A DNA stretch of 64,000 nucleotides from Candidatus Chisholmbacteria bacterium RIFCSPHIGHO2_01_FULL_52_32 (GTDB lineage: Bacteria > Patescibacteriota > Microgenomatia > UBA1400 > Chisholmbacteraceae): positions 522,681-586,680 of the forward strand of contig MHCJ01000003.1 of NCBI GenBank assembly GCA_001816585.1. Direction: 5' to 3'. Both the position numbers and the translations under genes were made by a program. Of the stretch, positions 25,058 through 44,036 are shown one piece after another; the first letter of the stretch is position 1; each line of letters begins with the position of its first letter. The notes beneath the pieces are model-generated. The model worked only from the letters and a program-made list of their open reading frames with translations, did no database searches and was not told the origin of the DNA.

Positions 25058-28000
25058 GTTTGTTTCTCTCCTTCACTCCGAGTGATACCAGGCCAATACC
25101 AAAGATCATCATCAGCGAGGCAAGGATAAGCCAAAGATTTTGAGCACCGGTTGCAGGCAGGGCGGTTGCAGCACCCAAGACCTGGTTTATCACGTTGTAC
25201 GAGGCTCCCGGCTGATTGTCTTTTTTGACTTCAACTTCGGTTCCGACGAAATTGGTATCGAGGTATCCGGGATCAACAGCCAGGGCGAGTAAAGCACCGG
25301 GATCGGTCGAAAGACAGTCGATATCCTTCTGGCAACCAAAAGCGTAGGCGAGATCGCCGTAGGTCCCGGCAAGTTGGGTATCGCTGATTTTTGCCTGGAA
25401 GGAAAGGAGTACCGTTTCTAAGGCCGTCATATCCCCCAGCTGCCAGACGCCTGGGCTTGCGTAGACCGGCTCCGGGGTTACGCCTCCCTCCTTGAGATCA
25501 CCCCGTTCGTTTGAAAGAGCGGTCCATGATCCGCCAACGTACGAGAATCCTTCGGGAAGAAGATCGGTTACCTGGACGTTGAAAATGGTCCGTCGGTTGG
25601 GGTTATAGATCGTGAGGGTGTATATTACCGTATCGCCCGGGCCCTTGGCTCCGGAGGCGTCGTTGACCTTTGAGATCTGAAACTCTGTCGGTAATTGTTG
25701 GTTTCCGAAGTTGTTGCCGAGGTCGTTTTCTCCCGACTCAAGCGTTACTGCATGACAGCTTGGTTCCGTGGGATAGGTCTGTTCCCAGCCTTCTTGCGGT
25801 ACTTCGCAGATAAAGTAGTCACCGGCATCGATGTTTTCGAAGAGGTAGTTTCCATTTTGATCCGTTACTGCGTCATCGCCGACCTGGTCACCAAGGTCCC
25901 CATCTTCATCTAGGAAGAGCTGGACGTGCCAGCCTGCAAGCCCCGGTTCCTCGCCAAGCTCTCCATTCCCGTCTTCATCGTTCCATTTCTTGCCGGCGAT
26001 TGTACCCGGCTGGTCGTCGTTTTCGATAGTGCAGGTCTTGTTCTCGCCTTCGGCCAAGGTGACGGAACCGTCTTCGTTACAGTCGCCGCCCCAGCTTCCG
26101 GCGGTGTAGCCGCTTAGTTCGGATTCACTGGCGGTATAGGAACCGACATTGAGCGTCTGGGGGATTCCCCAAGGAATGGGACTGGCGTCAATGGAGGCTT
26201 GGAAGTCATCCGCGCTTGCATTCCCTCCATTATCATTCACAACGGTCTTCTCCAAAGTCAGGGTGGGGGCGATATCGTCGTTTTCGATGGTGCAGCTTTT
26301 CTCATCTCCTACAGCGAGCGTTACACTTCCCTGGGCGTCACAATCCCCACTGATCGCCATTGTGTAGCCTGCATCTTGGGTTTCACTGACGGTGTAGGCC
26401 CCGGCGTCGAATCCATTCTGTACTCCGCTTGTTACCGGGGTCTGATCGACGAAGAGCGGGAAGTCGCCGACTTGTTTTGTGCCGCCGTTGTCGGTCACAA
26501 CCACTTTCGTCACAGTCAATTTCGGCTGGACATCGTCATTGGTGATGGTGCAGGTGATGTCTTCCCCTTCATCGAGGGTGACTGTTCCTCCGAGTTGGGA
26601 CGGACACTTCTCATCCCCGGTGAGGGAGATAAAGGTGTATCCGGTGAGCCCTGCTTCATTGATCGCAATTGGAGTGTTGGCATTAACTGCGGCGACTTGG
26701 CCAGAAGTGACTCCGCCGCCATCAACGGTCAAGCCAAAATCGTTCTCACTAGCAGTACCGCCATTATCATTGATCACTTCTTTTACGAGCGTAATTGTTG
26801 GTGCAATATCATCGTTTGTGATTGTGCATGTCTTGGATTCACCGGGTAAAAGTGTGACATTCCCCTGGGAATCACAATCATCTCCCCACCCTGAGGCAGA
26901 ATAGCCAGAGACAGCATCTTCGCTTACCGTGTAGGAGCCGGCTGCAACTGTATGGGCTCCCCAGCTTGATACTTGTCCGTTTATGTAGACTGCAAAGTTG
27001 ATTTCAGTTTCATTTCCACCGTTGTCATTGGGGAGAGTTTTGACAAGCGTGAGCGTTGCGGGCTGGTCATCGTTGGTGATCTCGCAGGTTTTTTGGTCCC
27101 CAGGCAGAAGAATCACATTTCCGCTTGCATCGCAGTCACCTCCCCAGTTACCGGCAGTATAGCCGCCCAGTGTATCTTCGCTGACAATATATGATCCTGC
27201 ATTAAGGAGGTGTGATCCCCAGCTTGCCTGATTCCCGTCGATGTAGACTGTAAAATTATTTTCAGTTGCTGTACCACCGTCGTCATTTGGAAGATTTTTT
27301 ACAAGTGTTAAGCTTGCCTGTTGATCGTCATTGGTGATCGTGCATGTAGCGGTCCCGCCGTTTGATACCTCTACTTGACTGCAATTGTCATAGGTTGTGC
27401 TGTATCCGGTGACAGATGGCTCGGTGATGGTGTATGTTCCGGCATCAACGGTCAGATCGTTCTGGCCGTCCGCTTCAAAGGGGACCGCGCCACCGCCATT
27501 GACTTGGAAAGAAAAGTCTTCAGCTTCGAGCGTGCCGCCGTTGTCGTTCGTAACGACCTTCTTAACGATGAGTATGCCCGGCTGGTCGTCGTTCGTCAGG
27601 GTACAGGTTACTTCCTGGCCTGCGACGACGGTGACATTTCCTTGGCTATCGCAATTGCCGCTGAAACCGGAGAATGTATATCCGGGTGGGAGTGTGTCTT
27701 CGCTGACCGCATAGGTTCCACCGGTAAGTGTGTACACTGTCCCGGTCGAAGAACCTGCTTGCGGACTGCCCGAAATATCCACTCCTCCGCTTTTGACGTG
27801 AAGGGTGAATGCCGAAGAAGAAGTTTGTCCTCCGTCATCGTTGACGACGCTTTTTATCACCCGGAGCGTTCCTTGCTGGATAACGGCTGTATCTTCGGAA
27901 TCGGAATTATTAGTCGAGTTGGTATCGGTACTTACCGCCGTATCTAAGGTGACCGCAGCCGAATTGGTAACGGAAACCTGGCCTGTAGTTAAGGTGCCGA

Positions 28001-30122
28001 CAATCGTCACCGTTGCATTGCCGCCGCTGGCTAATGAACCGAGTTCACACTGGATCGATGGTGCGGAAGTGTCAGAACACGATCCCAGGCTTGGCGTAAC
28101 CGAAGTTATGGCATATCCTGCAGGCAACGTATCGGTTACAACCACTCCGCTTGCTGTATCAGGCCCTGCATTGTTAATCGTGAGTGTATAGGTAAGGGTA
28201 TCACCGCTGGTAACCGGGTCCGGGTTGTCGCTTTTGACGATAGATAGGTCTGAAAGGGCTTCGTAACAGTTGAGGTGGTCTTTGTTGTAGTTATTTGCAT
28301 TCGTTGACGTTGCAAAAAACTTTGTGGTTGAGACATTAATGCCTCTTGACGTGAGTTCTGAAACAGGAATAGCCCAATCAATATAATAAGGACCCGATCC
28401 AGTTACGCGTCCATAAAAAGAAGATGCTCCTTCCCAAACTACACTATCTGCAGGATCATTAAAGAGTGGTTGAAAGTCTACTCCCCCCGAATCAGGAGAA
28501 TGGGTAGGGTTATCGTAAAGAAGAACTTTATTGCCGGCTTTACCGCTTATGGAGCCGAGATATTGGTATTGTGGAGTAGAAGTCTGAAATAACACTACCC
28601 AAGAATACTGATGCAAATTACTTACTGTTCCCGGGTTTCCATTTATGCGCTCTCTGAAGTACAAGTAATTGCTATCTGAACCAAATCCCACGGCGGGGGT
28701 AACAGTAGTTCCGACCAGATCAACTTCAGTTGGAGCAACACCAGATTCACCAGACAGATCAGCAACACAACTACCAGGTGTAGCCCAACTTGTAGGCCAA
28801 GCTGGCGCTGGTACTTCTGTATAAGTAACAACAGCGCGAATGGTACCAACCCATACTTCACTCGTGTCAGTGGCAGTTTTTAAAACCCCAACTTCAAGTG
28901 TTGTTGCTCCGCTTTTAACTGTATCGGCAACATTTATGGTTTGTGTCCCTGAAGTACACGTGGTATTTGTTGCGACGAGATTAACTCCTGAATTCAATTC
29001 AGTACCGTTGAGGCGTGTGAAAGTCTGAAATGTACCGTCATCTGCCCCGCCATCATTACCATTTCTGTAAGTTACACTTACATCAACACTAGTTATTGTA
29101 GATCCATCAGGAATACTTGTTAGATTGATTAAGACTGATTCGCGATTCCCGGTAGTTGAGGCTGATATATTGTCTTGACCGTCTCCTCCATCGTCGCAAT
29201 CTGGAGAGCCTGTTTCGTCGATATCACCTTCATCACCCGTCCAGCTTGTATATGTTCCTTGTCCGTTAGGGTAAAGCGTTCCTGTGGCTGCATCTGTAAA
29301 TGTTGTTGAGGCAACAACCTGACCATCAACATCTTTCGCTTCGACTAAATAGTTGGGACGGTAATTGCCATCAAGTTGATAGGCGTAGATGAAGAAGCCG
29401 GTTTCGTCGGCTTGTACCTCGGTTTCAAAATGCACGGCTGGTTCATTCTCCGAAGTAATTACAATAGTGTAGGTCTCGTTAGGGGTGAAGTCGGTGCCGG
29501 TGATGACCACGGTATCAGTGGGTGCGTAATCTGGTTTATCGGTTACAAGAGCGGCGCTCGTTTCAGCGTCGGGCGAGGCGAGATCCAAGGATACCGCTTC
29601 AACGTTTTGAAGAACGGCAACGGTCAGTTGGCCTTCTTCAGGACTGACTGTGGTGACTTCGGGCATTGGGATGGCTTCCGTCGAAGCACCATCAAGGATT
29701 TGATCGGTCGGTTCCGTTGCGGGAGGTCCTGTTTCATTGGGAGGCGCTTCGTCTGAAGAAGCTGGGATGTCTTGGCTTGATGTGGGTGCAGGAGTGATTT
29801 CCGGCGTCGGTTCGGGAGCTAGGGTCGGTTCGGGAGTAACCTCCGGCGTCGGTGCGGGTGTCGGAGACTGGGTGGTTTCAGGTTCGTTGATAGGATCGGA
29901 AGTAATCGTTTGTTCCGGCTCTGGGTCGGTAGTAAGTTCTGCGGAAGGCGTTTGTTCTTCCGCAGGTGTCGGGATCGGTGTTTCTTCAACTACCGTGGTT
30001 GGTTCGGGAGTTATTTCTTGCGCGTATGCAAATTGTGCGAGCGCAATCGGATTGAGCGATTGAATGAAAATCGCGACGATGGCGATGAGGTTGGTGGTTT
30101 TCCGAGCGAGCTTTATGTTCAC
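25050..30122 (-). CDS. giant (1690 aa) LPATG-anchored surface protein with tandem beta-sandwich repeats ending in TCTITNDD
   Basis: Signal peptide; more than 8 repeats of (G/S)YTxxxWxGDCDxxGxVTLxxGxxKTCTIxNDD...LTLxKxVxNDNGG; C-terminus ALPATGAQN + hydrophobic helix + KERNKHE. GTG start. Confidence 0.8.
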   Translation of the reverse strand: MNIKLARKTTNLIAIVAIFIQSLNPIALAQFAYAQEITPEPTTVVEETPIPTPAEEQTPSAELTTDPEPEQTITSDPINEPETTQSPTPAPTPEVTPEPTLAPEPTPEITPAPTSSQDIPASSDEAPPNETGPPATEPTDQILDGASTEAIPMPEVTTVSPEEGQLTVAVLQNVEAVSLDLASPDAETSAALVTDKPDYAPTDTVVITGTDFTPNETYTIVITSENEPAVHFETEVQADETGFFIYAYQLDGNYRPNYLVEAKDVDGQVVASTTFTDAATGTLYPNGQGTYTSWTGDEGDIDETGSPDCDDGGDGQDNISASTTGNRESVLINLTSIPDGSTITSVDVSVTYRNGNDGGADDGTFQTFTRLNGTELNSGVNLVATNTTCTSGTQTINVADTVKSGATTLEVGVLKTATDTSEVWVGTIRAVVTYTEVPAPAWPTSWATPGSCVADLSGESGVAPTEVDLVGTTVTPAVGFGSDSNYLYFRERINGNPGTVSNLHQYSWVVLFQTSTPQYQYLGSISGKAGNKVLLYDNPTHSPDSGGVDFQPLFNDPADSVVWEGASSFYGRVTGSGPYYIDWAIPVSELTSRGINVSTTKFFATSTNANNYNKDHLNCYEALSDLSIVKSDNPDPVTSGDTLTYTLTINNAGPDTASGVVVTDTLPAGYAITSVTPSLGSCSDTSAPSIQCELGSLASGGNATVTIVGTLTTGQVSVTNSAAVTLDTAVSTDTNSTNNSDSEDTAVIQQGTLRVIKSVVNDDGGQTSSSAFTLHVKSGGVDISGSPQAGSSTGTVYTLTGGTYAVSEDTLPPGYTFSGFSGNCDSQGNVTVVAGQEVTCTLTNDDQPGILIVKKVVTNDNGGTLEAEDFSFQVNGGGAVPFEADGQNDLTVDAGTYTITEPSVTGYSTTYDNCSQVEVSNGGTATCTITNDDQQASLTLVKNLPNDDGGTATENNFTVYIDGNQASWGSHLLNAGSYIVSEDTLGGYTAGNWGGDCDASGNVILLPGDQKTCEITNDDQPATLTLVKTLPNDNGGNETEINFAVYINGQVSSWGAHTVAAGSYTVSEDAVSGYSASGWGDDCDSQGNVTLLPGESKTCTITNDDIAPTITLVKEVINDNGGTASENDFGLTVDGGGVTSGQVAAVNANTPIAINEAGLTGYTFISLTGDEKCPSQLGGTVTLDEGEDITCTITNDDVQPKLTVTKVVVTDNGGTKQVGDFPLFVDQTPVTSGVQNGFDAGAYTVSETQDAGYTMAISGDCDAQGSVTLAVGDEKSCTIENDDIAPTLTLEKTVVNDNGGNASADDFQASIDASPIPWGIPQTLNVGSYTASESELSGYTAGSWGGDCNEDGSVTLAEGENKTCTIENDDQPGTIAGKKWNDEDGNGELGEEPGLAGWHVQLFLDEDGDLGDQVGDDAVTDQNGNYLFENIDAGDYFICEVPQEGWEQTYPTEPSCHAVTLESGENDLGNNFGNQQLPTEFQISKVNDASGAKGPGDTVIYTLTIYNPNRRTIFNVQVTDLLPEGFSYVGGSWTALSNERGDLKEGGVTPEPVYASPGVWQLGDMTALETVLLSFQAKISDTQLAGTYGDLAYAFGCQKDIDCLSTDPGALLALAVDPGYLDTNFVGTEVEVKKDNQPGASYNVINQVLGAATALPATGAQNLWLILASLMMIFGIGLVSLGVKERNKHE

Positions 30123-30603: not shown

Positions 30604-31350
30604 TTAATACAGCTTCTGAATCCCCGTGATGTCGCCGTCGTTTAGGGTCCGTTTGATGATATCCCCTTCGGTTGAGTAGCCGAACATGGTTTCAAGGTTG
30701 CAGGATGTGTTGTAGAGATCGTCCATGCCGGCGCTGTGACCGAGTTCGTGGGTCGCTATGTTGCGTAGGTCCATCAATAAGGGATTACTTGTCGCGTCAC
30801 CCCATGTCCAGCTGGAATCTGTGTTAAACAACATGTCCCACTCAACGAGCGCCCTGGTTTGCGGCGGGCCGCCGAAATAGCCCCAGACGTTCGTCACTGC
30901 GATCACGCCGGAATCAGCGTATGGTCCGAATGAGGCACTGTTCTTTCCGTCCATACTTTCGTTATAGGTTATATCCGGATCCTTGATACTGTTTCCGAAG
31001 ATGCTGTTTCCTCCGTAGTTTTCCCACTCGGATACTCCGGCATCAACTGCGTTCATGACATCATTGTCATTGAGTCCATCAGGATTGGTGGGATTGACAC
31101 GGTAATCCTCCGTTGTCTTCCACTTGGCCCCATTGGCAAGGAATCCATAGCATGCAGTTGCTTTTGGTTTTCCGACCTGCGCTGGCTTGGCATATCCTTT
31201 TTTGTGGTGGATGAAGGTGATCTTGGTTAAGGGGCCTCGATCATCAAGGCCTTTGGGACGCTCGTCACCGTTTTGGGCCAAAATAGGGAACGCCCAAACC
31301 AGTGCGGTAAAAATCCCAAGAATCGAGAATGTAACTATTGCTTTCTTCAT
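30604..31350 (-). CDS. secreted zinc metalloprotease, HExxHxxGxxD (snapalysin/M7-like metzincin-type motif)
   Basis: IATHELGHSAGMDDLY. Signal peptide MKKAIVTFSILGIFTALVWAFPILAQ (start moved to this Met). Confidence 0.55.
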   Translation of the reverse strand: MKKAIVTFSILGIFTALVWAFPILAQNGDERPKGLDDRGPLTKITFIHHKKGYAKPAQVGKPKATACYGFLANGAKWKTTEDYRVNPTNPDGLNDNDVMNAVDAGVSEWENYGGNSIFGNSIKDPDITYNESMDGKNSASFGPYADSGVIAVTNVWGYFGGPPQTRALVEWDMLFNTDSSWTWGDATSNPLLMDLRNIATHELGHSAGMDDLYNTSCNLETMFGYSTEGDIIKRTLNDGDITGIQKLY

Positions 31351-31472
31351 TATCTGTTCACCACCTTTCTTTTCGCTGTGATGGTACGATAACTGATCGC
31401 GACTTTCTGTGTTGTATATTACACTATTCTTGCAACTTATGGGCCAGTTAGCAAATGACTCTGTTATTATTG

Positions 31473-31748
31473 TCAAGCGGTCTCGTTCTTTTCAATACGC
31501 TGGAAGATTACTCCTTCTTCCCTACACTCATGGCAAAGCGGAAATGCCTCCCTTGCCGGAGCACCTTGTTCTTCAATAAAACTGCTCCCTCTTGTTGCAG
31601 GGAGTACATCTTGTGCGGCTCTTGCCAGATCGAGCGCAAGTTCAGGACTTGCCGGGAACCCGATTTTCAGGCACTGAGTGTTTTGCTCCGGGTCCTTTGA
31701 ACAGATTCGCAGGCTTACGGTGCGTGCTTGAATACCTTCTTTAAACAT
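31473..31748 (-). CDS. small Cys-containing hypothetical protein, overlaps the metalloprotease start by 4 nt
   Basis: C-x9-C ... CHEC; operon position only. Confidence 0.3.
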   Translation of the reverse strand: MFKEGIQARTVSLRICSKDPEQNTQCLKIGFPASPELALDLARAAQDVLPATRGSSFIEEQGAPAREAFPLCHECREEGVIFQRIEKNETA

Positions 31749-33422: not shown

Positions 33423-33809
33423 TTGGTGATCAACATGAAAAACATTCTTAAACGCACTGCCTCGGTGGCTGTTGCTGGTGCTTTGCTTCTGCAGTTCTCG
33501 TCCACTGTGTTTGCAGGAACCAGAGTTGTGATTCGGAACAACGGTGCACATAGCAGGAACAGGGTAAGGATACAGAGTACGCAGGACGTGGATGTTACAC
33601 AAACCAATAGGGCGAATATCACGAACACGGTCGTGGCTGTTGCAAACACGGGAGATAACCTTGCCAATGGGAATACCGGCGGGAATACCTCGATCACCAC
33701 GGGTGATGCCTCGGCTTCGGCAACAATCGTCAATGTTGCGAATGCCAATATTGCGGTGGTGAATACCTGTTGTAATGGGGATACTCCGTGTGAACCGGTG
33801 GTTGAATGA
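33423..33809 (+). CDS. small secreted protein = one copy of the 'NTGxN...NTGG...CC' repeat domain
   Basis: Signal peptide; Q(S/T)NxAxxxNxVxAxANTGDNLANGNTGGNTSITTGDA...VNTCC. Same repeat as in 37190..38524, 52014..53174, 53235..55433 and 55575..56867. Confidence 0.5.
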   Translation: MVINMKNILKRTASVAVAGALLLQFSSTVFAGTRVVIRNNGAHSRNRVRIQSTQDVDVTQTNRANITNTVVAVANTGDNLANGNTGGNTSITTGDASASATIVNVANANIAVVNTCCNGDTPCEPVVE

Positions 33810-33915: not shown

Positions 33916-34758
33916 GTGCCTCTTCAGAAAGGTGGTGAAAAAACAATGAAGCGATTTTTATTGAGCGTGTTTACGATTGCCGCGGTTGCCGGACTCGCGT
34001 TCGGCGCAACATCGGCGTTCTTCTCCGATACGGAAACGTCAACGGGGAATACATTCGCGGCAGGAGAATTGGATCTTCACATCGATAACACCAGTTATCT
34101 TAATGGAGCGCTCAATCCAGGCACTACGTGGGAGCCTTCTGATTTAACAAATCAGTTATTTTTCAATTTTCTCGATGTTAAGCCCGGAGACGAGGGTGAA
34201 GATACAGTTAGTATTCATGTTGCTGACAACGATGCTTGGGCGTGCGTGGACATCGATATCACTGAGAACGATGACGTGAGTTGTACAGAACCTGAATTGG
34301 CTGATGATGGAACTTGTGCAGAAGGAGATGGAGTGCCAGACGGTGATCTTACCGATGGTGATTTAGCAGGCGACCTTGAGTTTTTGTTCTGGACCGATGA
34401 TGGTGACAATGTGTTTGAAGACGATGAAACTCCCTTAACTCAAGGTTTGGCATCTTCGGTTCTTAACGATGTAACGTGGACTCTGGCTGATGCGGATGAA
34501 AATAACGTTGGCGGAATAGATGGGGATCCTTTGGATGGTGATACGACCTACCACATCGGAAAGGCATGGTGCTTTGGTGATCTAACCCTAGATGCAACTG
34601 CATCAGGGCAAGGTGTTAATCCAACGGTCGATCCAGGTGTTGAATGTAACGGGACTCTCGTTGATGATGCCTCGCAGTCTGACAAGTTGATGGGTGATAT
34701 CAGCTTCTACGCTGAGCAGTGGAGGAACAATCCGAATTTCCAGTGCGGGCAGGATTAA
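33916..34758 (+). CDS. TasA/camelysin (M73)-like protein with a SipW-cognate-type signal peptide, copy 1
   Basis: MKRFLLSVFTIAAVAGLAFGATSAFFSDTETSTGNTFAAGELDL; ...FFNFLDVKPGDEGEDTVSIHV. Confidence 0.6.
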   Translation: MPLQKGGEKTMKRFLLSVFTIAAVAGLAFGATSAFFSDTETSTGNTFAAGELDLHIDNTSYLNGALNPGTTWEPSDLTNQLFFNFLDVKPGDEGEDTVSIHVADNDAWACVDIDITENDDVSCTEPELADDGTCAEGDGVPDGDLTDGDLAGDLEFLFWTDDGDNVFEDDETPLTQGLASSVLNDVTWTLADADENNVGGIDGDPLDGDTTYHIGKAWCFGDLTLDATASGQGVNPTVDPGVECNGTLVDDASQSDKLMGDISFYAEQWRNNPNFQCGQD

Positions 34759-35018: not shown

Positions 35019-35885
35019 ATGTGTGGAGGTATGAAGAAGCTTTTTGTCAGCCTGGTTACGTTGGCCGCTGTGGGAGCGCTTGGTTTTGGCGCAACGCGGG
35101 CGTTCTTTTCCGACACCGAAACCAGTACGGGAAATACCTTTCAAGCCGGAGGCCTTGATTTGAAAGTCGATAGCGAGTGCCACTACTTCCAAAATAATGA
35201 GGCCATCGGCTGCGATGGCTTCGGCACATGGGGAGAAGCGGATTTGGTTCCGGGAATTCACAAATTTTTCAACTTTACGGATATCAAACCCGGTGACTAC
35301 GGAGAAGATACGCTAAGCCTTCATGTTGTCGGTAACGATGCCTGGGGGCGGCTGGTCATCGGTGATTTTCAAGATTCTGATAATACATGTCCCGAACCTG
35401 AAGAAGAAGCGGAAGGAGAACCTTGCGGGACAGAAGGGGAACTTGGGGAGAATTTACTGGTCTCTGTGTGGCTTGATCAAGGGATAAGCGTTGGATTTGG
35501 GGGAAAACCGTCCCCACAAGGAGGAGATGCGGGAGAAGGGGACAACATTCGGCAAACCCAAGAACCATTTCTGATCGCTGAGACCACGCTCGATCAGCTT
35601 CCAAGCACTATTGACCTTACTCAAGAACTTGCCGATTATCGCCAGTCTATTAGTGCCACCTGCGATTTTTATGATCCGGATGGTGACGGTCAAACCGGCG
35701 GGCCGGGATATTGTCAAGGATTGGCCACTGATGGGCGTCTTGTAGGCAGCGTTACCTACTATTTTGCGATTGCCTGGGAGCTACCGGCGAGTGTCGGAAA
35801 TGAGGTGCAGACAGATAGTGTTGGATTTGATCTTGCGTTTGAAGTAGAACAGACTCGGAATAACCCGACGCCTTTTGAGATCTAA
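35019..35885 (+). CDS. TasA/camelysin-like protein with a SipW-cognate-type signal peptide, copy 2
   Basis: MKKLFVSLVTLAAVGALGFGATRAFFSDTETSTGNTFQAGGLDL; FFNFTDIKPGDYGEDTLSLHV. Confidence 0.6.
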   Translation: MCGGMKKLFVSLVTLAAVGALGFGATRAFFSDTETSTGNTFQAGGLDLKVDSECHYFQNNEAIGCDGFGTWGEADLVPGIHKFFNFTDIKPGDYGEDTLSLHVVGNDAWGRLVIGDFQDSDNTCPEPEEEAEGEPCGTEGELGENLLVSVWLDQGISVGFGGKPSPQGGDAGEGDNIRQTQEPFLIAETTLDQLPSTIDLTQELADYRQSISATCDFYDPDGDGQTGGPGYCQGLATDGRLVGSVTYYFAIAWELPASVGNEVQTDSVGFDLAFEVEQTRNNPTPFEI

Positions 35886-37188
35886 GATCGCATCTATGAT
35901 AGATGTTTTGAAAATGAGAGTACCACTAATCAAAGGTTTTTTTGTTATTTTTCAAGTCTTTCTTGGAACCGCGATTGTTGGAACTGCGGCTCTTCTTCTG
36001 GCCGATCACTTCGGGGTGTTGGAGTTTGTCAAACCCTATGTCGTCATGTCCGGGTCGATGGAGCCGGCGGTCCGGCTTGGAAGTGTGGTGGTCGTGCGAC
36101 CGCAATCTTCCTATTCATCTAATGACGTTGTTACCTATGCCCCTAATGGAGACAAAGAAAAACCGGTCACCCACCGCATCCTGTTCAAGTCGTATCCTGA
36201 CGGCATTACCCAGGCGCCTGTTTACCTCACAAAAGGTGATGCTAATGAGGATTTCGATCGGGCTGCGGTGAGTGCAAAAGACGTTATCGGGAAGTCGCTG
36301 TTTGTAATCCCCTTTCTTGGTTATGTGGTGAATTTCGCCAAACAGCCGTATGGATTTATCTTCCTCGTGATTGTTCCGGCAACGATTGTGATTTACGAGG
36401 AATTCAAATTCCTTGGGAAAGAACTCTCTATTTTCCTCATGAACAGTTCTTCTTGGCTATCCGCCCGGATCTCTAAGAAGAACGGAATTCGTCTGCGTCG
36501 GGGGATCAATCTTCTTTCGAAACGCGAAAAGGGAGTTCCCAAAGCAGCGGCTGTTGTTCCGGTCATCGGGACGATTTTGGTTCTTTCCGCTTTCACCGGT
36601 GCGTTTTTCTCGGATACCGAGCAAAGCTCCGGGAATGTCTTCAGCGCGGCGGAGAGTTTCGGACCGCCGATTGCAAATCATCTGGTGATCAATGAAGTGT
36701 ATTACGATGTGGCACCAGGTAAAGGAGATGAAGGTGATAGTGCAAATCCAGACGAGTGGGTTGAGCTCTATAATCCTACTTCTTCACCTGTCGATATCAA
36801 AGATTGGAGTATAGGTGATGATGAGGATGGAGATAATGTCTCCTCCGCTGAAAAAATTATTCCTCCTGGAGGTTTTGCTCTTATTGCAAAAAGCAATAGC
36901 ACCTGGAATAACTGGGATGAAGATCCTGATGCGGACAAGATCCCTATCGGAGATAAGATTGGTAATGGTCTAGCCAACGCAGGTGACACAGTAATTCTCC
37001 TTGATGACAATGGAGCTGAAGTTGATCGAATGAGTTGGGGAAACGATACTTCTGGTTTCACTTCAGGTTGTGCATCCTCATGCCCTACAGTTGCTGAAGG
37101 TCACTCGTTAGAGAGAGATCCAGATGGAGTTGATACAAATACCGCTGCTGATTTTGTTGACCGCACAACTCCAACGCCAGGTACCTAA
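35875..37188 (+). CDS. sipW: ER/archaeal-type signal peptidase I (SipW, S26B) fused in frame to a C-terminal lamin-tail domain (LTD) segment that carries its own SipW-cognate-like signal motif
   Basis: S26B Ser motif VVMSGSMEP, His motif PVTHRI, TKGDANEDFD; then TM helix; then KKNGIRLRRG...AAAVVPVIGTILVLSAFTGAFFSDTEQSSGN; then LTD (LVINEVYYD...EWVELYNPT...DIKDWSI...GDTVILLD). No stop codon between the two parts. Confidence 0.65.
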   Translation: MRSKIASMIDVLKMRVPLIKGFFVIFQVFLGTAIVGTAALLLADHFGVLEFVKPYVVMSGSMEPAVRLGSVVVVRPQSSYSSNDVVTYAPNGDKEKPVTHRILFKSYPDGITQAPVYLTKGDANEDFDRAAVSAKDVIGKSLFVIPFLGYVVNFAKQPYGFIFLVIVPATIVIYEEFKFLGKELSIFLMNSSSWLSARISKKNGIRLRRGINLLSKREKGVPKAAAVVPVIGTILVLSAFTGAFFSDTEQSSGNVFSAAESFGPPIANHLVINEVYYDVAPGKGDEGDSANPDEWVELYNPTSSPVDIKDWSIGDDEDGDNVSSAEKIIPPGGFALIAKSNSTWNNWDEDPDADKIPIGDKIGNGLANAGDTVILLDDNGAEVDRMSWGNDTSGFTSGCASSCPTVAEGHSLERDPDGVDTNTAADFVDRTTPTPGT

Positions 37189-37189
37189 G

Positions 37190-38524
37190 ATGAAAAAAGC
37201 AATTAGAAAAATCCTGATTTTAATACTCGCACTAGCGGTTATTGCTCGATTCGGGAATTTCCGGCAGGAGCGTTCGAGACCCGTCTATGCCGTTGGCGAT
37301 TTGGTGATCACACATGGTGGCAATCCTCTCGGACCGCCGATTTTTACCGTGACGAATATGCTGCCTGGGGACGAGGAGTCTCAAGATGTGGTCGTCACAA
37401 ACAGCGGAACGGTCCCCCGGTTTGTGGCGGTTCGGGGCGTACGGACGGGACCTCCTGATGAGTTGGATCCGAAGTTTGAGACCGTCCTTGAGATTGTTAT
37501 CAGCGAAGGGGGAACGGATCTTTACGGCGGGACGCTCGGCACGAAGACGGTTCAGGACTTTTTCGATGACAGCACAGACCCGAACGGAATTCTTCTCTCA
37601 ATCGTCAACCCATCTGACACAACCACCTACCATTTTGAGGTTACCTTCCCTGAGTCGGGTGATAATGACTTCGATAACCAGTTTCAGGGAAAATCGGTGA
37701 TTTTCGATCTCATCTTTGGCGTTATCACCGGAGAAAGCTTAGTGATCAACGAGGTGTACTACGAAGTCGACGGGAACCACGGGGTTGATAGTCCGAAGGA
37801 CCGCGGGATCGTTTCGATTAACGGGAGGAATATAACCGTTATTATCGAAGGGAACGGGGCCGGCTCGACCAACACGGTGACTATGACGATTTCGCAGTAC
37901 TGTAATATCACCCAATCGAACAACGCTACTATTAATAATGGTGTGATTGTTATTTCTAATACCGGGGGCAACTCGGCATCCGGGAACACCGGAGGGAGTA
38001 CCTCGATCATCACCGGGGCGGCCAATGCGGTCGTCAACATCATCAACATCGCAAACCTTAATATCGGCACCTGCAACGGGAAAAAGCTCGGTCTGAACGA
38101 TGAATGGATTGAGATTTACAACCCGACGGACCACGCGATTTCCCTTAAAAACTGGCGGCTGCGGGATAATTCCGGTTCGGATACCGTGATCAACGCCAAT
38201 AAGAGCGTTCCGGCGTTTGGGTTCGCCCTGATTTCTAAGGACGCCCGGCCCTGGAGCTTCTGGAACGAGAATCCCCTGGCAAAGAAAATCGAGCTTGGGC
38301 GGCAGATCGGGGATGGCCTCGACAACGATGGGGACCATGTATACCTCAAGAAGCCGGATGGGACGGTGGTTGACGCTGTCGGCTGGGGCGATGATACGGC
38401 GGTTTGGAATCCGGCAGTACCTCTGGTTGCCTTAGGATCTTCGATCGAGCGGTTGGTTCCCGGGTTTGATTTCGATCTTGTTTCCGACTGGGATGAGCAA
38501 GCTCCTCCAACTCCCGGTATTTAG
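37190..38524 (+). CDS. secreted protein: TasA-like N-terminal region plus an LTD interrupted by a 'NTGGN...NTGG' repeat insert
   Basis: Start at MKKAIRKILILILALAV; TNMLPGDEESQDVVVTNSG; LVINEVYYEVDG...[GNGAGSTN...NTGGNSASGNTGGSTSIITGAANA...NIGTCNG]...EWIEIYNPTDHAISLKNWRL...GDHVYL. Confidence 0.55.
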   Translation: MKKAIRKILILILALAVIARFGNFRQERSRPVYAVGDLVITHGGNPLGPPIFTVTNMLPGDEESQDVVVTNSGTVPRFVAVRGVRTGPPDELDPKFETVLEIVISEGGTDLYGGTLGTKTVQDFFDDSTDPNGILLSIVNPSDTTTYHFEVTFPESGDNDFDNQFQGKSVIFDLIFGVITGESLVINEVYYEVDGNHGVDSPKDRGIVSINGRNITVIIEGNGAGSTNTVTMTISQYCNITQSNNATINNGVIVISNTGGNSASGNTGGSTSIITGAANAVVNIINIANLNIGTCNGKKLGLNDEWIEIYNPTDHAISLKNWRLRDNSGSDTVINANKSVPAFGFALISKDARPWSFWNENPLAKKIELGRQIGDGLDNDGDHVYLKKPDGTVVDAVGWGDDTAVWNPAVPLVALGSSIERLVPGFDFDLVSDWDEQAPPTPGI

Positions 38525-38615: not shown

Positions 38616-39173
38616 CTAGAGGAGGGCGGCAAAGGATGAGGCGGGTTTGGCGATGATGATCAGGCGTTGGGATTTTTGCGCTCCCGTGCAAGTAAGGAGC
38701 GTGAGGCGTTCGTCGGCTGTCTGTGCAATGACCCCGACCTCGGCCGGGCTGACAACGCGGATCGCGGAAACAAGATAACTTTTTGTTTTCCCTTCTCCCT
38801 CGATGAAGACCCGATCGCCAAGAAAAACTTTCTCAAGCGGTCCGAAGAAGTCTTCGGTATTGTGCGCATATATCACCGCGTTTCCCCATTCTCCAGGTTT
38901 GGCACTGGTTGCGAGGTAGGAGGCGGCATCCGGGAAGAACTCATAGCTTCCCGCTTGGCTTGCTGCTGACTTGAGTTGCAGATCAAGGTTCGTTTTTGGA
39001 ATGTATATCCTTTCCGGGGTGACAATGACCCTTTGGTGGTACTCGTGGGTTGGGGCTTGCACCAAGAGCGGGGCAAATTGGCTCTCGACCGGCTGAGGGT
39101 TTTGTCCAAACAGCGAGGCAAGGCTCATCCCGGCAAACGTGGCGATGGTGGCAACGAGCAATGGTATCTTCAT
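38616..39173 (-). CDS. sortase family transpeptidase (sortase 2)
   Basis: N-terminal TM helix; VIYAHNTEDFFGPL; TLxTC motif LTLLTC. Confidence 0.65.
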   Translation of the reverse strand: MKIPLLVATIATFAGMSLASLFGQNPQPVESQFAPLLVQAPTHEYHQRVIVTPERIYIPKTNLDLQLKSAASQAGSYEFFPDAASYLATSAKPGEWGNAVIYAHNTEDFFGPLEKVFLGDRVFIEGEGKTKSYLVSAIRVVSPAEVGVIAQTADERLTLLTCTGAQKSQRLIIIAKPASSFAALL

Positions 39174-39332
39174 GACTTCCTTTATAAAAAGGACTCCTAG
39201 TGGGAATCCTTGCGGCCTATACTATCCTTTCTCCCTTCGTTGTCAAGTCTGTACAGGTGCGACCTGTACGCGCAGTTTTTCCTGGCATTCATTCTCTCTG
39301 TACAGGTCGCACCTGTACGGTACAATGGGCAT

Positions 39333-39992
39333 ATGCCCGCAAAGTACACAGTCAAGATGTATGTTGAAAACGGTTATTATCATCTCCTCAACAGAGGGGT
39401 GGATAAACGATCTATTTTCTTCGATAAGAAAGATTCCGTCACCTTTCTGTCTCTTCTTAAGCGCTACCTTACTAATCCTGACCTTCTCCCACCTGAACTT
39501 CAGTTTCTCCGCCCGTCGCGCAGGTCGCACCTGTACGAGCAGATAACGCTCGTTGCCTACTGCCTTATGCCAAACCACTTTCACCTACTTGTAAGGCAGA
39601 AATCCAGGAACGCCATCACTGAATTCGCCCGTTGCCTCATGAACTCCTATGTCCGGCACTTTAATGACCGCCACGAGCGAGTAGGTCCTCTCTTCCAAGG
39701 AAGAATCAAGGGGATACTGGTGGATAATGATTCCTACCTCCTCCATTTGACACGATATATCCACCGCAATCCGGAAGAGTTTTGGGAACGTTCTCTTCGA
39801 GATTACCCGTATTCAAGCTATGCTGAGTATCTTGGTCTTCGAAGTACCTCTTGGATTCATCCGGAAGCGATTCTTGCCTATTTCAGATCACCCCTAAATA
39901 AAAGTCTGCATGATTATTTTTCCTACGAAAGCTTCGTCGAGGAATCAAAAGACGATTCGTCTGAGATCCTTAAGGAGATCACCCTCGAATAG
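39333..39992 (+). CDS. REP-associated tyrosine transposase (RAYT; IS200/IS605-like Y1 HuH transposase, transposase_17 type)
   Basis: YYHLLNRG...FFD (N-terminal motif), HuH motif AYCLMPNHFHLL, catalytic Tyr region YLLHLTRYIHRNP, DYPYSSY. Start at Met42 of the track ORF because the upstream in-frame residues are REP sequence. Flanked by REP doublets. Confidence 0.8.
   Translation: MPAKYTVKMYVENGYYHLLNRGVDKRSIFFDKKDSVTFLSLLKRYLTNPDLLPPELQFLRPSRRSHLYEQITLVAYCLMPNHFHLLVRQKSRNAITEFARCLMNSYVRHFNDRHERVGPLFQGRIKGILVDNDSYLLHLTRYIHRNPEEFWERSLRDYPYSSYAEYLGLRSTSWIHPEAILAYFRSPLNKSLHDYFSYESFVEESKDDSSEILKEITLE
39520..39536. repeat. REP-like copy inside the rayT coding sequence (GCAGGTCGCACCTGTAC, inverted orientation, 17 of 19 positions)
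   Basis: In frame it encodes RRSHLYE within a variable region of the RAYT, just upstream of the HuH motif. Confidence 0.6.
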
Positions 39993-40613: not shown

Positions 40614-43600
40614 TCAATCCCCTACAATAAAGATTACATTAGCATCAAGCTCATGACCAAATTCAGATACACCTATCAGGTAAGTCTTGCCAGACTTAAA
40701 GTTGTAATCGCGAAGATGAAGATTAACGATGTAGTGTTGTTTGTCTGCGTCAATTCGTATGACATCGCTTTTCCCATGCAGACCTGGATTTTCCATTGAA
40801 AGGAATGCAATGGCCGAAGAGGGATTGCTCGGATCAACGACCCAAACCTGCACACTCTCATCTTCAGCAAATCTTCCTTCAGCATCACGAATGGTGAACT
40901 TGATGGGAAGGGTCGCATTGCGTGAAACTCTCGGCGGTTTATCCGGATCATTTAACGGTGAGTCCCATTGGATACTTAATGGAGCCGTGGGAAGACTAGC
41001 TCGATTATATGTAGCCGTATGCTCATGAATGTCTCCTGGTGAGGTGGTCCCTGTGAATTCTGCGAAGGTAAGAATGCCTGCGTCACTAAGCGCTTGTACT
41101 AGTACCATGTAATTTCCTTCCTCTACTCCTAGTAACTTGATTGTGTATTCTCCCTCCAAGGGATCCGGGATGAAGATGAAGTCCGGCTCATTAACCTCAA
41201 TTGATCTACTGAACAATGTTCCCGGAATTTCTGATAGTTCCTCACCTGTATTAAAATCAAGGCCCACTCGTCTTCCCAGAGGATCGGTTATCTGAATTTC
41301 CACCGGCGAGAGAATAATGAACCCTAAAGCAGCCTCATGCAAATTGATGCCCGGATCAACAAAGCCGGCGTTAAAAAATGGTCGTGTCTTCGTTAAGAGC
41401 TCTACAATGCTTTGTTGGAGTTGGGTCGGCAAGTGTCCATGCTCAATAATCGATGTATTATCTGCACTCAGATAATACCGGGGCACGAGACGAGTATCGA
41501 TGAAGCTTAGATCAGCGCTCGCTGTTGGTACGGTTTTATCTCCTCTTCCCAGTGGACGAAAATCTCTGCCTTTTAATACCTTTCCGTTCTGCCATATGCC
41601 ATAAATATCATCTAGAAGGTTGCGCCCCACGACTTTGTACAATTTGTCAGTATCCTCAAGTGGACGTTCATTCTCATAGCGATCTCCGACTACAGAAATC
41701 ACATTGTTTCCTCCTAACCGATTAATGAGAACTACTATATTTTCATTGAGTGAGGTCAAGAATTCATTTATCTGATGCCCGAATGGGTAAATCGAGTTTA
41801 AATTATCTGCGGCGACAAGATACCCTCCGGGATCATCCCTCAAATACTCATCCACTGGAAAAAGTTCTCGGATACTCGGCACCTTATCTTTAATGTATTG
41901 GTAGAGATCAGTCTTCGTGGTGAAGCAGAGCTTTGTGAGGTCGGTACAGTACCCTTTCTTCCTCGCTAGAGCGCGGAGTAACCATTCCGCAAGAATCTTT
42001 CCTTTATCGCCGACGATATCATCGAAGAAATCAAATTCCAGACCTTCTGCCGCCAGGTACGCTTTCGGTGCACCAAGGTGGGGTGTTCCTAGCGTGATCA
42101 GCCGATGGACATCTCCCGTGTATGAATCGCCTTGGACGTAGGCGCGGGACACAAGCCCGCCAAGACTGTGCCCAACAAGATCCACGGAAGAGGAGTCCAC
42201 GTACTCCGACACTGATGCTTTTGGAAGCATTGAGCTTCGTATTGCAATGCCTAACTCGCCTCCTGACTTGGAAATGTGCTGTCTCCAGTCATACGGGAAT
42301 GTGAATAGGCTTTGATCAACTTCGTACCCAGCAAATTGTAATTCTTCGAGAAGATTGTTATATGTACCGAGGATAGGATCTATAGTCCATTGTCCAAAAG
42401 CATTTTTCATCGAACCCAGTAGGCCGGGAATAACTACCACCGGATGGATTCGGGCAGTTGGGATAATCATGGTTTCTTGATCGACGCCGAGGATTTCTCC
42501 GTTTGAATCATTAAACATTTTCGCGGTAACGAGAATGGTTTGCCCCGACATCGGCTGAATCCACATCGGCCACATTATTGGGAGGGACTGACCGGGATTT
42601 AACCTTAATGCTCGTCTTAGTATCGCTGGTGGCTCGAGGAGCGTTCCATTATCTTCAAAGAGCAGGCGACTGGGATTTGAGAACGAGACTTCGAGATCCC
42701 CCACCATAATGGCAGATCCCGTATTTGACACACTCACTCGTACTTCCGTGGGATTCTGTGCATACCAACCATCTTCATTGAGCGTGAGTTCGTGCGGTAC
42801 AGCGACATCGACGATTGGACCAGAACCTAATGGTGCGGTGGTGGAGAAGAAAATATCCCAGCTGGTACCTTCGATTTCCTCCATCCAAACAGCATAGGCG
42901 TAGCCCTGTCCATCCATGGCCACATCGGGGGCAAGTTTGCGACGTGTCAGGTCAGGAGTAACGAGAGTGTTCGGACTCCAGGTTCCATCTGCCTCCCTAT
43001 ATGTAGAGTAGATCTCATAGGAATCAGGGAGAACAGTGATGAGGTTATCCGCCCAGACCACAACGGCCTCCCCGGCAGGAGTGACGGCAATTGCCGAAAA
43101 ATCACGGAAGCCATTTTGGGCGTCGCTGACTTGACTGATCGGATCCCATGCTCCACTCGCGTTCCGCTTGCGGAAGGCAATCTCCCAGTCCGGAGTGGCT
43201 TGTGTCCAAACCACATAGGAATTCGCGGAGGCGTCAATTCCGACATCGGGGTTTTGGCCGAAAGCGGTGGAGACGGGTTCGTTCGCTCCCCAAGAATCTC
43301 CTTGTGGACGATGGGAGAAATAGATCTGCTGGAGTCTATTGCGCAGATCGGTCCAAACTACAGCCGCATTCCCGCCCTGATCGACAGTAAGGGAGGGCCC
43401 GCGTGTACCGCTCGTGATCACGGACCCCGGGACATCGTTGACTAGTGTATCAGTTCCCCAGTTTCCTCCATGGGGTCGGTAGTCGAAAAAGAGGTCTTGA
43501 AAATCAGTAGAATCGGGAGGATTCCGCCGATCATACCAAGCAGCATAGGCATTTCCCGCAGGATCAACGGCAATATCCGCATAGGGCTGGGCTTGGGCAT

Positions 43601-44036
43601 CGGGATCGGTTACCTGTTCCCGAACGAGGGTTTCCGTGGCCCAGCCTCCCCCGGCAGGAAGAAAGACAAACCAGAGTTTCCCAAAGCTTTCCCAAAGCAC
43701 ATAGGCATTCCCGCCTGCGTCCACGGCGATACTCGGTTCGTCGCCGACCGTTAAGGCATCGTTCACCTGTACTTCCGATCCCCAATTCCCTCCCGCAGGA
43801 CGGTAATCCACGTAGATGTCAAAGTGATTACTATTTCGCTTATCCATCCAGACCGCGTAGGCGTTGCCCGCCCCATCAACCGTAACTGAAATTGCCGGAT
43901 ACCACTGCTCGGCAGGTCCAAGGTCATCATTCACTCGGACCTTGGGGCTCCAAACAGGGTCGGCGGCATGGGCAGAGGGAGTAAAAAAGAAAAAAGGGAG
44001 GAAAAAGAGAAGTGTGAAGATGCATCGGCGGATCAT
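40614..44036 (-). CDS. large secreted protein: 7-bladed beta-propeller (xGNAYxVW repeats) + PGAP1-like alpha/beta-hydrolase (lipase/esterase, GHSLGG) + C-terminal beta-sandwich domains; paralog 1
   Basis: Signal peptide; repeats DGAGNAYAVWMDKRN x7; VVVIPGLLGS...LVGHSLGGLVSRAY...LITLGTPHLGAPKA. Confidence 0.7.
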   Translation of the reverse strand: MIRRCIFTLLFFLPFFFFTPSAHAADPVWSPKVRVNDDLGPAEQWYPAISVTVDGAGNAYAVWMDKRNSNHFDIYVDYRPAGGNWGSEVQVNDALTVGDEPSIAVDAGGNAYVLWESFGKLWFVFLPAGGGWATETLVREQVTDPDAQAQPYADIAVDPAGNAYAAWYDRRNPPDSTDFQDLFFDYRPHGGNWGTDTLVNDVPGSVITSGTRGPSLTVDQGGNAAVVWTDLRNRLQQIYFSHRPQGDSWGANEPVSTAFGQNPDVGIDASANSYVVWTQATPDWEIAFRKRNASGAWDPISQVSDAQNGFRDFSAIAVTPAGEAVVVWADNLITVLPDSYEIYSTYREADGTWSPNTLVTPDLTRRKLAPDVAMDGQGYAYAVWMEEIEGTSWDIFFSTTAPLGSGPIVDVAVPHELTLNEDGWYAQNPTEVRVSVSNTGSAIMVGDLEVSFSNPSRLLFEDNGTLLEPPAILRRALRLNPGQSLPIMWPMWIQPMSGQTILVTAKMFNDSNGEILGVDQETMIIPTARIHPVVVIPGLLGSMKNAFGQWTIDPILGTYNNLLEELQFAGYEVDQSLFTFPYDWRQHISKSGGELGIAIRSSMLPKASVSEYVDSSSVDLVGHSLGGLVSRAYVQGDSYTGDVHRLITLGTPHLGAPKAYLAAEGLEFDFFDDIVGDKGKILAEWLLRALARKKGYCTDLTKLCFTTKTDLYQYIKDKVPSIRELFPVDEYLRDDPGGYLVAADNLNSIYPFGHQINEFLTSLNENIVVLINRLGGNNVISVVGDRYENERPLEDTDKLYKVVGRNLLDDIYGIWQNGKVLKGRDFRPLGRGDKTVPTASADLSFIDTRLVPRYYLSADNTSIIEHGHLPTQLQQSIVELLTKTRPFFNAGFVDPGINLHEAALGFIILSPVEIQITDPLGRRVGLDFNTGEELSEIPGTLFSRSIEVNEPDFIFIPDPLEGEYTIKLLGVEEGNYMVLVQALSDAGILTFAEFTGTTSPGDIHEHTATYNRASLPTAPLSIQWDSPLNDPDKPPRVSRNATLPIKFTIRDAEGRFAEDESVQVWVVDPSNPSSAIAFLSMENPGLHGKSDVIRIDADKQHYIVNLHLRDYNFKSGKTYLIGVSEFGHELDANVIFIVGD

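Follow-up and report, generated by a model that had tools for sequence, protein, structure and literature searches.

A signal peptidase and the proteins it cuts are normally separate, and the question raised by one gene in a 64,000-nucleotide (nt) stretch of contig MHCJ01000003.1 (the window, meaning the whole stretch of DNA that was analyzed) is whether enzyme and substrate are here encoded by one gene. The gene, which comes from an uncultured groundwater bacterium, Candidatus Chisholmbacteria bacterium RIFCSPHIGHO2_01_FULL_52_32, joins in a single frame a signal peptidase I, a Lys/Arg-rich loop, an internal signal peptide with the motif FFSDTE.S..N.F.A, and a lamin-tail domain (LTD). We read it as a SipW-type peptidase fused to its own substrate, which would be cut at the internal site and would serve as a functional analogue of TapA in a TasA-type fibre, and we put the probability of this explanation as a whole at about 0.6.

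The open reading frame (ORF) spans 35875..37188 on the plus strand (437 codons from a TTG) and contains no internal stops. The best-matching public protein, P0001 (430 amino acids [aa]; OGY18615.1 / OGY20014.1), is 100% identical and is recorded from Candidatus Chisholmbacteria bacterium RIFCSPLOWO2_01_FULL_50_28 and RIFCSPHIGHO2_01_FULL_52_32; it and its homologues are labelled in the database merely "signal peptidase I." Its ATG at 35896, which is the likely start of the gene, lies 10 nt past the stop of the preceding TasA-like gene. Residues are numbered here as in P0001 (adding 7 converts to the 437-aa ORF). The features of the fusion are the following.

35896..37188, plus strand: fusion gene (430 aa plus stop), from the ATG of P0001; the mechanical ORF reaches the upstream TTG at 35875
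35929..36009, plus strand: N-terminal transmembrane segment 1 (TM1) of the peptidase (hydrophobicity peak at residues 17 to 35; AlphaFold2 helix)
36004..36408, plus strand: catalytic domain of an endoplasmic reticulum (ER)/archaeal-type signal peptidase I (TIGR02228; SEC11A/C by sequence and fold)
36343..36414, plus strand: TM2, the usual C-terminal anchor of SipW-type peptidases (hydrophobicity; AlphaFold2)
36415..36543, plus strand: Lys/Arg-rich loop, predicted cytoplasmic (12 Lys + Arg versus 3 Asp + Glu)
36544..36603, plus strand: predicted h- and c-region of the internal signal peptide, AAAVVPVIGTILVLSAFTGA (TIGR04088 match; −3/−1 residues)
36604..36651, plus strand: FFSDTEQSSGNVFSAA, located where TasA has its donor strand, and the new N-terminus if cleaved (motif frequencies)
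36673..37185, plus strand: LTD cargo, immunoglobulin (Ig)-like (Pfam PF00932; predicted local distance difference test score [pLDDT] >90; lamin Ig-fold matches)

The hydrophobicity profile of the fusion has three hydrophobic segments (residues ~17 to 35, 152 to 173, and 217 to 233), for which AlphaFold2 placed helices at 2 to 38, 151 to 194, and 217 to 232; the domains were modelled confidently, with a predicted template modelling score (pTM) of 0.51 for the whole. The NCBIfam model TIGR02228 (sigpep_I_arch) matched aa 44 to 178 with 85.8 bits (cutoff, 51.85), the nearest solved relatives were human SEC11C and SEC11A (phmmer E value of 5e-7 for SEC11C), and the top Foldseek matches of the AlphaFold2 model were 7P2Q and 7P2P, which have the SEC11-like fold. 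Ser54 (codon 36055-36057) lies in SGSMEP, His93 (codon 36172-36174) takes the place of Lys in VTHRI, and Asp115 and Asp121 are located within GDANEDFD. In 102 aligned fusions, His93, Asp115, and Asp121 were invariant, and both Ser52-Gly-Ser54-Met-x-Pro and, in the strand motif, Asp240 and Asn247 were close to invariant. By these matches and residues, the peptidase half belongs to the ER/archaeal-type signal peptidase I (MEROPS S26B; SipW/Sec11 type). The Bacillus SipW equivalog model NF046067 gave 89.2 bits, under its cutoff of 190, and the peptidase is thus SipW-type and not an orthologue-level SipW.

The second half begins with a signal of the kind that SipW recognizes. The residue features of such a signal are present internally: a basic n-region precedes a hydrophobic h-region, positions −3 and −1 are small, +1 and +2 are aromatic, and Asp, Glu, and Asn stand at +4, +6, and +11. 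Cleavage is predicted after Ala236, between nt 36603 and 36604. The triplet TGA precedes FFSDTEQSSGNVFSAA in the fusion, and TSA and TRA precede FFSDTETSTGNTF at the N-termini of the two TasA-like proteins encoded upstream. TIGR04088 (the SipW-cognate signal, a 34-position model with a cutoff of 19 bits) was the sole match when the segment KAAAVVPVIGTILVLSAFTGA followed by FFSDTEQSSGNVFSAA was scanned alone, with 17.9 to 18.7 bits, just under the cutoff; in a scan of the whole fusion at an E value of ≤0.01 it was absent from the matches, so that the isolated segment only gives the match. The position of this signal, at about residues 217 to 252 of 430 and not at the N-terminus, is the distinguishing mark of the fusion. 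A family hidden Markov model (HMM) of the signal and motif region had exactly three matches in the window, in the two TasA-like genes and at the internal site, which argues that the internal copy did not arise by chance; one SipW-type peptidase domain was found in the window. These results bear out each element that the initial annotation, made from the letters of the sequence, had described: a single frame without a stop across peptidase and LTD, with which the ORF reading agrees; a peptidase of the S26B type that has both the Ser and the His motif and a C-terminal TM segment, in line with the TIGR02228 and SEC11 matches; a basic stretch, a hydrophobic stretch, a SipW-cognate motif, and a complete LTD, each of which held; and a motif common to the internal site and both upstream TasA-like proteins, the same three places that the family HMM found.

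Residue frequencies around the site were compared between 136 fused internal sites and the N-terminal signals of 120 TasA-like neighbours.

Position −3: Ser/Thr/Ala in 98% of fused sites versus Thr/Ser in 98% of TasA-like neighbours
Position −1: Ser/Ala/Gly, 98%, versus Ala/Ser, 98%
Position +1: Phe/Tyr, 94%, versus Phe/Tyr, 91%
Position +2: Phe, 86%, versus Phe, 93%
Position +4: Asp, 97%, versus Asp, 98%
Position +6: Glu, 81%, versus Glu, 95%
Position +8: Ser, 80%, versus Ser, 91%
Position +11: Asn, 94%, versus Asn, 99%
Position +15: Ala, 87%, versus Ala, 90%

The same pattern surrounds the site in 21 stand-alone LTD proteins. Small residues at −3 and −1 have been kept over deep divergence, which would not be expected of a relic junction. 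The loop preceding the signal is net positive in 99% of 91 homologues (median of 11 Lys + Arg versus 4 Asp + Glu), which fits an in-out-in-out topology with the site on the side of the catalytic domain; its length (14 to 72 aa) and its sequence are unconserved. It corresponds to the C-terminal tail of a SipW joined to the n-region of a substrate.

The fusion is not peculiar to one genome. P0001 is identical in two separately binned metagenome-assembled genomes (MAGs), on 8 contigs, and members of its cluster (≥90% identity; 424 to 437 aa) are intact in other assemblies. Almost all of the best 120 database matches (35 to 55% identity) span 88 to 98% of the query and carry the LTD, and in nearly all homologues the linker aligns as TM2, basic loop, hydrophobic segment, small-x-small, and [FY]F[SF]D.E.S..N.[FL].A. 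In total, the fusion has been retained in at least 30 species-level genomes and in >110 protein clusters. Identical copies in two MAGs and many fused homologues argue that it is not an artefact.

To place the fusion among its relatives, loci were searched in one genome per species (GTDB representatives) with an alignment of 15 closer sequences as the query. This gave 323 loci with a relative, all in MAGs of Patescibacteria (the candidate phyla radiation [CPR]), some of them mislabelled by title, and the best 80 of the 323 were classified with HMMs for peptidase, signal and motif, and LTD. One ORF with peptidase, signal, motif, and LTD was present at 17 of the 80 loci, and one ORF with peptidase, signal, motif, and another tail at 13. 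A stand-alone SipW (~170 to 200 aa) was followed at 41 loci by an ORF with the signal and motif and/or the LTD, and at 8 loci by nothing detected in the next position; the remaining locus, which begins inside the peptidase gene, had no strong peptidase match. Just upstream, nearly all loci had between one and three TasA-like genes that carry the motif at the N-terminus. At locus L001, a clear example of the split state, a Peptidase_M73 gene is followed by a SipW of 192 aa and, after an ATGA overlap, by a 244-aa signal-motif-LTD protein that reads MRKLYFLFIFGSLLLIFSMRFTHS, cleavage site, YFTDASVSGVNTF, and continues with a Pro/Thr linker and an LTD much like that in the window. Among split loci, the gene after SipW shares 4 nt with it at 8 of 29 and has an overlap of another short length at most others, and the LTD gene has its own ATG and N-terminal signal. 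Since split loci carry the same module as a separate gene, the C-terminal half of the fusion is orthologous to a SipW-type substrate that elsewhere stands alone; the initial annotation had called this half substrate-like, and the 41 loci with the module next to SipW support it strongly. On a neighbour-joining tree of the peptidase domains (81 sequences), almost all fusions form one clade (Woese-, Ames-, and Chisholmbacteria and "Microgenomates"), another three fall outside it as isolated cases, and the fused or split state changes 6 times. One main fused clade with isolated fusions besides indicates that the fusion is old, retained, and recurrent, and we are highly confident that it is a conserved peptidase-substrate fusion.

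The closest other Chisholmbacteria locus (L017, 5968-7171; MAG JACOWY010000006) has an ORF that ends soon after IAQTLVM, with the LTD continuing in another frame than the peptidase, signal, and motif, which reflects a frameshift error or a decaying copy. At L014, L019, L023, and L044 a second, more divergent SipW-type gene lies a few kilobases away on the minus strand (HMM scores of ~100 to 114); the family HMM found no second SipW-type peptidase gene in the window. The record titles of many MAG contigs that matched read "uncultured Gammaproteobacteria," "Pseudomonadales," or "Saccharibacteria"; the cassette of these contigs is of the Patescibacteria type and their position in the tree is with Woesebacteria, and the records are probably mislabelled.

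Four other accounts of the locus were weighed against a self-cut fusion. One is that sequencing or assembly went wrong, or that in this genome only a stop was lost recently, as in a pseudogene. It might be suspected from the split orthologues with 4-nt overlaps, where a single-base change could fuse the two genes, and from the Chisholmbacteria MAG with its LTD in another frame. This is hardly credible given the identical protein in two MAGs and on 8 contigs, the >110 distinct fused clusters, the 30 fused loci among the best 80 species loci, which form a clade, and the functional residues conserved in both halves; a sequencing error, which the initial annotation had named as a possible refutation, is contradicted by these same records. 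It had also supposed that separate LTD orthologues would reduce the gene to two genes joined by a lost stop. Such orthologues do exist, but we do not accept the lost-stop reading because the fusion is clade-wide and its catalytic and −3/−1 residues are conserved. Translation might instead begin inside the loop, at an in-frame ATG at 36439, and yield an ordinary pre-protein with its own signal peptide. That ATG, which gives a plausible long n-region, is indeed the sole in-frame one in the linker and is preceded by no Shine-Dalgarno-like sequence, as had been stated at the outset and as the sequence check agrees. We dropped the missing Shine-Dalgarno sequence as a decisive argument because the fusion's own start is equally without one. 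Of 91 homologues, only 23% have a Met in the loop, whose length and sequence are unconserved; internal initiation, the alternative named by the initial annotation, is thus unlikely as a general mechanism and very improbable as the explanation of this gene.

Two further accounts concern the site itself. It follows the general small −3/−1 rule and could be cut by the housekeeping LepB-type peptidase or by another protease, the fusion then merely coexpressing the two parts. We regard this as improbable, since an aromatic P2′ residue is poorly cut by Escherichia coli LepB and TasA depends on SipW (PMC10269814), and Phe or Tyr at +1 and Phe at +2 are conserved in the fusions; moreover, the site is the same as in the TasA-like neighbours, whose only dedicated cassette peptidase is that of the fusion. 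The remaining account is that the fusion stays uncleaved, the third segment being a permanent TM helix and the tethered strand and LTD serving as an anchor or dock for the fibre or as a regulatory pseudo-substrate. TapA was first described as an anchoring or assembly protein at the membrane (PMC10151520), AlphaFold2 models a helix at 217 to 232 with the site undocked, and complementation of a subunit would in principle be open to a tethered strand as well. Against this, small −3/−1 residues occur in 98% of the 136 fusions, exactly as in free substrates, the h-region is of signal-peptide length with Pro at −15 and Gly at −12, the orthologous stand-alone proteins bear ordinary N-terminal signals, and versions with just 19 to 30 residues past the site make little sense as anchors. 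We therefore consider a permanently uncleaved fusion unlikely.

Several points weigh against the self-cut substrate that we prefer. The TIGR04088 score of the internal segment is marginal, and this model was matched at an E value of ≤0.01 in just 21 of 60 homologous internal segments (best, 1e-9). The pLDDT falls below 50 at residues 235 to 251 and the site is not placed in the active site; with the cleavage region disordered and a pTM of 0.51, the model speaks neither for nor against cleavage in cis. The LTD is not homologous to the domain of TapA. Conservation of the strand motif could come from a function of the strand without cleavage, and among the conserved positions the −3/−1 pattern alone argues specifically for cutting. 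Taking both sides together, cleavage at Ala236 by a SipW-type activity is probable. The catalytic domain precedes the rest in synthesis and export, so that cis-cleavage would be feasible in time; trans cleavage by a neighbouring molecule is equally possible.

The part of the cargo behind the strand is a well-defined LTD (PF00932; 67.9 bits versus a cutoff of 34.3; aa 268 to 389), with structure matches to the lamin Ig-domains 3JT0 and 1IFR. Scanning the fusion in the window for Peptidase_M73 (PF12389; TasA/camelysin) gave no match, the LTD following directly after the strand. Pfam and NCBIfam gave only the peptidase, TIGR04088, and LTD, with no TapA match for the cargo, the presence of a TapA model in these libraries not having been confirmed. 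Among the homologues the tail past the strand varies; it is mostly an LTD, sometimes another domain, and sometimes almost nothing. At locus L004 (P0062, 649 aa), a full Peptidase_M73 (TasA-like) domain lies between the internal motif and the LTD, and by its domain content P0062 joins a peptidase to an entire fibre subunit. At the other extreme, minimal fusions (L043, L050, L032, L058, and L003) have 19 to 55 residues past the site and no cargo domain, L043 terminating 19 residues past the site with AYYSDSEKSTQNSFTASNNF. A variable tail behind a constant strand indicates that the conserved unit is peptidase, internal signal, and strand, which is what a TapA-like initiator needs.

The genes around the fusion bear on what such a strand might do. 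The cassette on either side of it consists of the following.

33946..34758, plus strand: TasA/camelysin-like subunit 1, whose SipW-type signal and donor strand are N-terminal (TIGR04088, Peptidase_M73, family HMM)
35031..35885, plus strand: TasA/camelysin-like subunit 2 (TIGR04088, Peptidase_M73, family HMM)
37190..38524, plus strand: downstream partner with a signal peptide, a TasA-fold domain without the FFSDTE donor strand, and a split LTD
38616..39173, minus strand: sortase (Pfam Sortase), a cassette neighbour also at loci L001 and L003; its link to the fibre system is uncertain

TIGR04088 matched the two upstream proteins above its cutoff (28.5 and 28.7 bits), and Peptidase_M73 also passed. 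The second of them aligned with the TasA-like family of the cassette at 99.8% probability in hhalign, and the profile of this family matched TasA (5OF1/8AUR) over the whole jelly-roll with an E value of 2e-9. A single-sequence phmmer search of the PDB with the second protein gave nothing meaningful, so that the family profile was needed to reach TasA. On the strength of these profiles the upstream genes are true TasA homologues.

The downstream gene begins 1 nt past the stop of the fusion and is conserved in cassettes of the fused type; its protein has >100 full-length homologues (45 to 63% identity). The family of its N-terminal domain matched the TasA-like family with a probability of 98.6% (E value of 8e-16), the alignment starting at the AGTLDL position, which indicates that the donor strand is absent, and 10 of 20 members of the downstream-protein family had a Peptidase_M73 match. 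Its signal is ordinary, with a conserved V-x-A before xGDL, and its LTD is C-terminal and split by an insertion of ~95 aa (aa ~205 to 300) between the first strand and EWIEIYNPT. This insertion is kept among homologues and has low pLDDT in the model. A secreted 128-aa ORF without a Pfam match (33423-33809, plus strand) is 52% identical to it over 64 aa (E value of 8e-15), and the two share the motif NTG(G/D)N.A.GNTGG.TSI.TG.

In Bacillus subtilis TasA, the donor strand is formed by the first 11 mature residues (28 to 38) and completes the next subunit, with hydrophobic contacts through F29, I32, and F39, and the N-terminus of TapA, which resembles that of TasA, has been proposed to give the first strand (PMC9674648). 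TapA works by strand complementation, and a strain secreting TapA 44-57 alone formed normal biofilms (PMC10151520). The minimal fusions, whose strands of 19 to 30 residues carry no cargo, resemble this engineered TapA. In a by-eye alignment of AFNDIKSKDATFASGTLDL with FFSDTETSTGNTFTAGTLDL, the FFSD...N segment fell at the donor-strand position. The fused cargo has the strand and not the body of TasA, and the motif at the position of the Bacillus TasA donor strand leads us to read it as a TapA-like fibre initiator. The cassette as a whole encodes a strand-only protein and a strand-less TasA-fold protein, both with an LTD, around two complete subunits.

We propose the following course of events. 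The N-terminus of the fusion would lie inside the cell, followed by TM1, the catalytic domain outside, TM2, and the basic loop inside; the third hydrophobic segment would act as a signal peptide, and all that follows, from the cleavage site through the FFSDTE strand to the LTD, would lie outside. Once the third segment is inserted, the exported catalytic domain, of the same molecule or of a neighbour, would cut after TGA (Ala236), leaving a three-helix peptidase in the membrane and a protein of ~21 kDa with a new N-terminal TasA-type donor strand and then the Ig-like LTD; the semi-tryptic peptide expected of the cleaved cargo is FFSDTEQSSGNVFSAAESFGPPIANHLVINEVYYDVAPGK. The freed strand would complement the first TasA-like subunit from the upstream genes and so start or cap a fibre built by donor-strand exchange, with an LTD at one end, and the fusion would give enzyme and initiator a 1:1 ratio and a common location. 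The donor-strand-less TasA-fold protein with its LTD is the natural candidate for the opposite end. That the strand-only and strand-less proteins might stand at opposite ends of a polar fibre is the weakest step. By analogy with Bacillus, a role as initiator or cap in a putative TasA-type fibre has about even odds. The fullest version, in which a self-processing polyprotein frees an LTD-bearing donor-strand initiator and, together with the downstream end-piece, forms a chaperone-free polar pilus with both ends genetically specified, is tentative and somewhat below that.

Other genes of the window lie near the cassette. A secreted matrixin-type metalloprotease (Peptidase_M10; 30604-31476, minus strand) with an HELGH motif adjoins it, and a 1,690-aa surface protein with seven SpaA_2 domains, DUF11, and an LPATG cell-wall sorting signal is encoded at 25050-30122 (minus strand). 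We considered the LTD proteins as substrates of the sortase and rejected this, since on reading the sequence their conserved C-terminal PTPG has only one residue after it and an obvious substrate is present in the LPXTG protein at 25050-30122. A gene for a protein with an IS200-like Y1 transposase domain (Y1_Tnp; 39210-39992, plus strand) separates the sortase from the next large gene. Encoded at 40614-44036 (minus strand) is a secreted protein of 1,140 aa, the middle of which is an alpha/beta-hydrolase (lipase) domain of PGAP1/LCAT-like type.

Known systems share parts of this arrangement. In the glycoprotein precursors of flaviviruses and bunyaviruses, an internal hydrophobic segment reinitiates translocation and is cleaved on the trans side, giving two products per ORF. 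These viral polyproteins use a separate host peptidase, whereas in the fusion the peptidase would itself be the first of the two products. Streptococcus pyogenes SipA/LepA (PDB 4N31), which was among the fold matches, likewise puts a signal-peptidase fold to use for a surface fibre, in pilus polymerization. SipA is part of sortase-built pilus systems and is described as a chaperone without catalytic residues; in the fusions, in contrast, the catalytic Ser, His, and Asp are conserved. In the sipW-tasA-capP-calY cluster of Bacillus cereus, a SipW-type peptidase comes with an accessory assembly factor and a pair of camelysin-type subunits whose N-termini are of the FFSD type; the factor, CapP, is by its description chaperone-like and a protein of its own, not fused to the peptidase (PMC13082335). 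TasA homologues occur in Patescibacteria (PMC9245690), and a full-text literature search returned no paper linking SipW or signal peptidase with LTD, with substrate fusion, or with CPR bacteria. The split pairs of Patescibacteria (L001, L028, and L038) have the same cassette, order, and signal and motif, with orthologous peptidase and LTD protein, and differ in being split into two genes, which usually overlap by 4 nt or another short length, the second having its own Met and N-terminal signal. A TasA-type surface fibre with LTD ends may on this evidence be a widespread cell-surface structure of Patescibacteria, in which host attachment is central to biology and poorly understood.

The closest functional parallel is tapA-sipW-tasA of B. 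subtilis. There, too, the N-terminus of a minor secreted protein mimics the donor strand of TasA, and an Ig-like domain comes after it; TapA and TasA are both cut by SipW, and TapA, which is as scarce as SipW, is translationally coupled to it through overlap of the tapA stop with the sipW start (PMC10151520, PMC9674648). Unlike in B. subtilis, peptidase and initiator are here one polypeptide joined via an internal signal peptide, the order is two tasA-like genes and then sipW::cargo, the cargo is an LTD and not a TapA domain, and a donor-strand-less TasA-fold protein follows. The locus would thus work like tapA-sipW-tasA, yet it is no orthologue-level member of that system, because the peptidase falls below the SipW equivalog cutoff, the cargo matched only the LTD and TIGR04088, and the signal is internal. 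If the fusion is self-processing, it offers a natural one-polypeptide assay for SipW-type specificity, and it would be a genetic argument that the coupling of TapA and SipW in Bacillus is a real functional pairing of initiator and peptidase.

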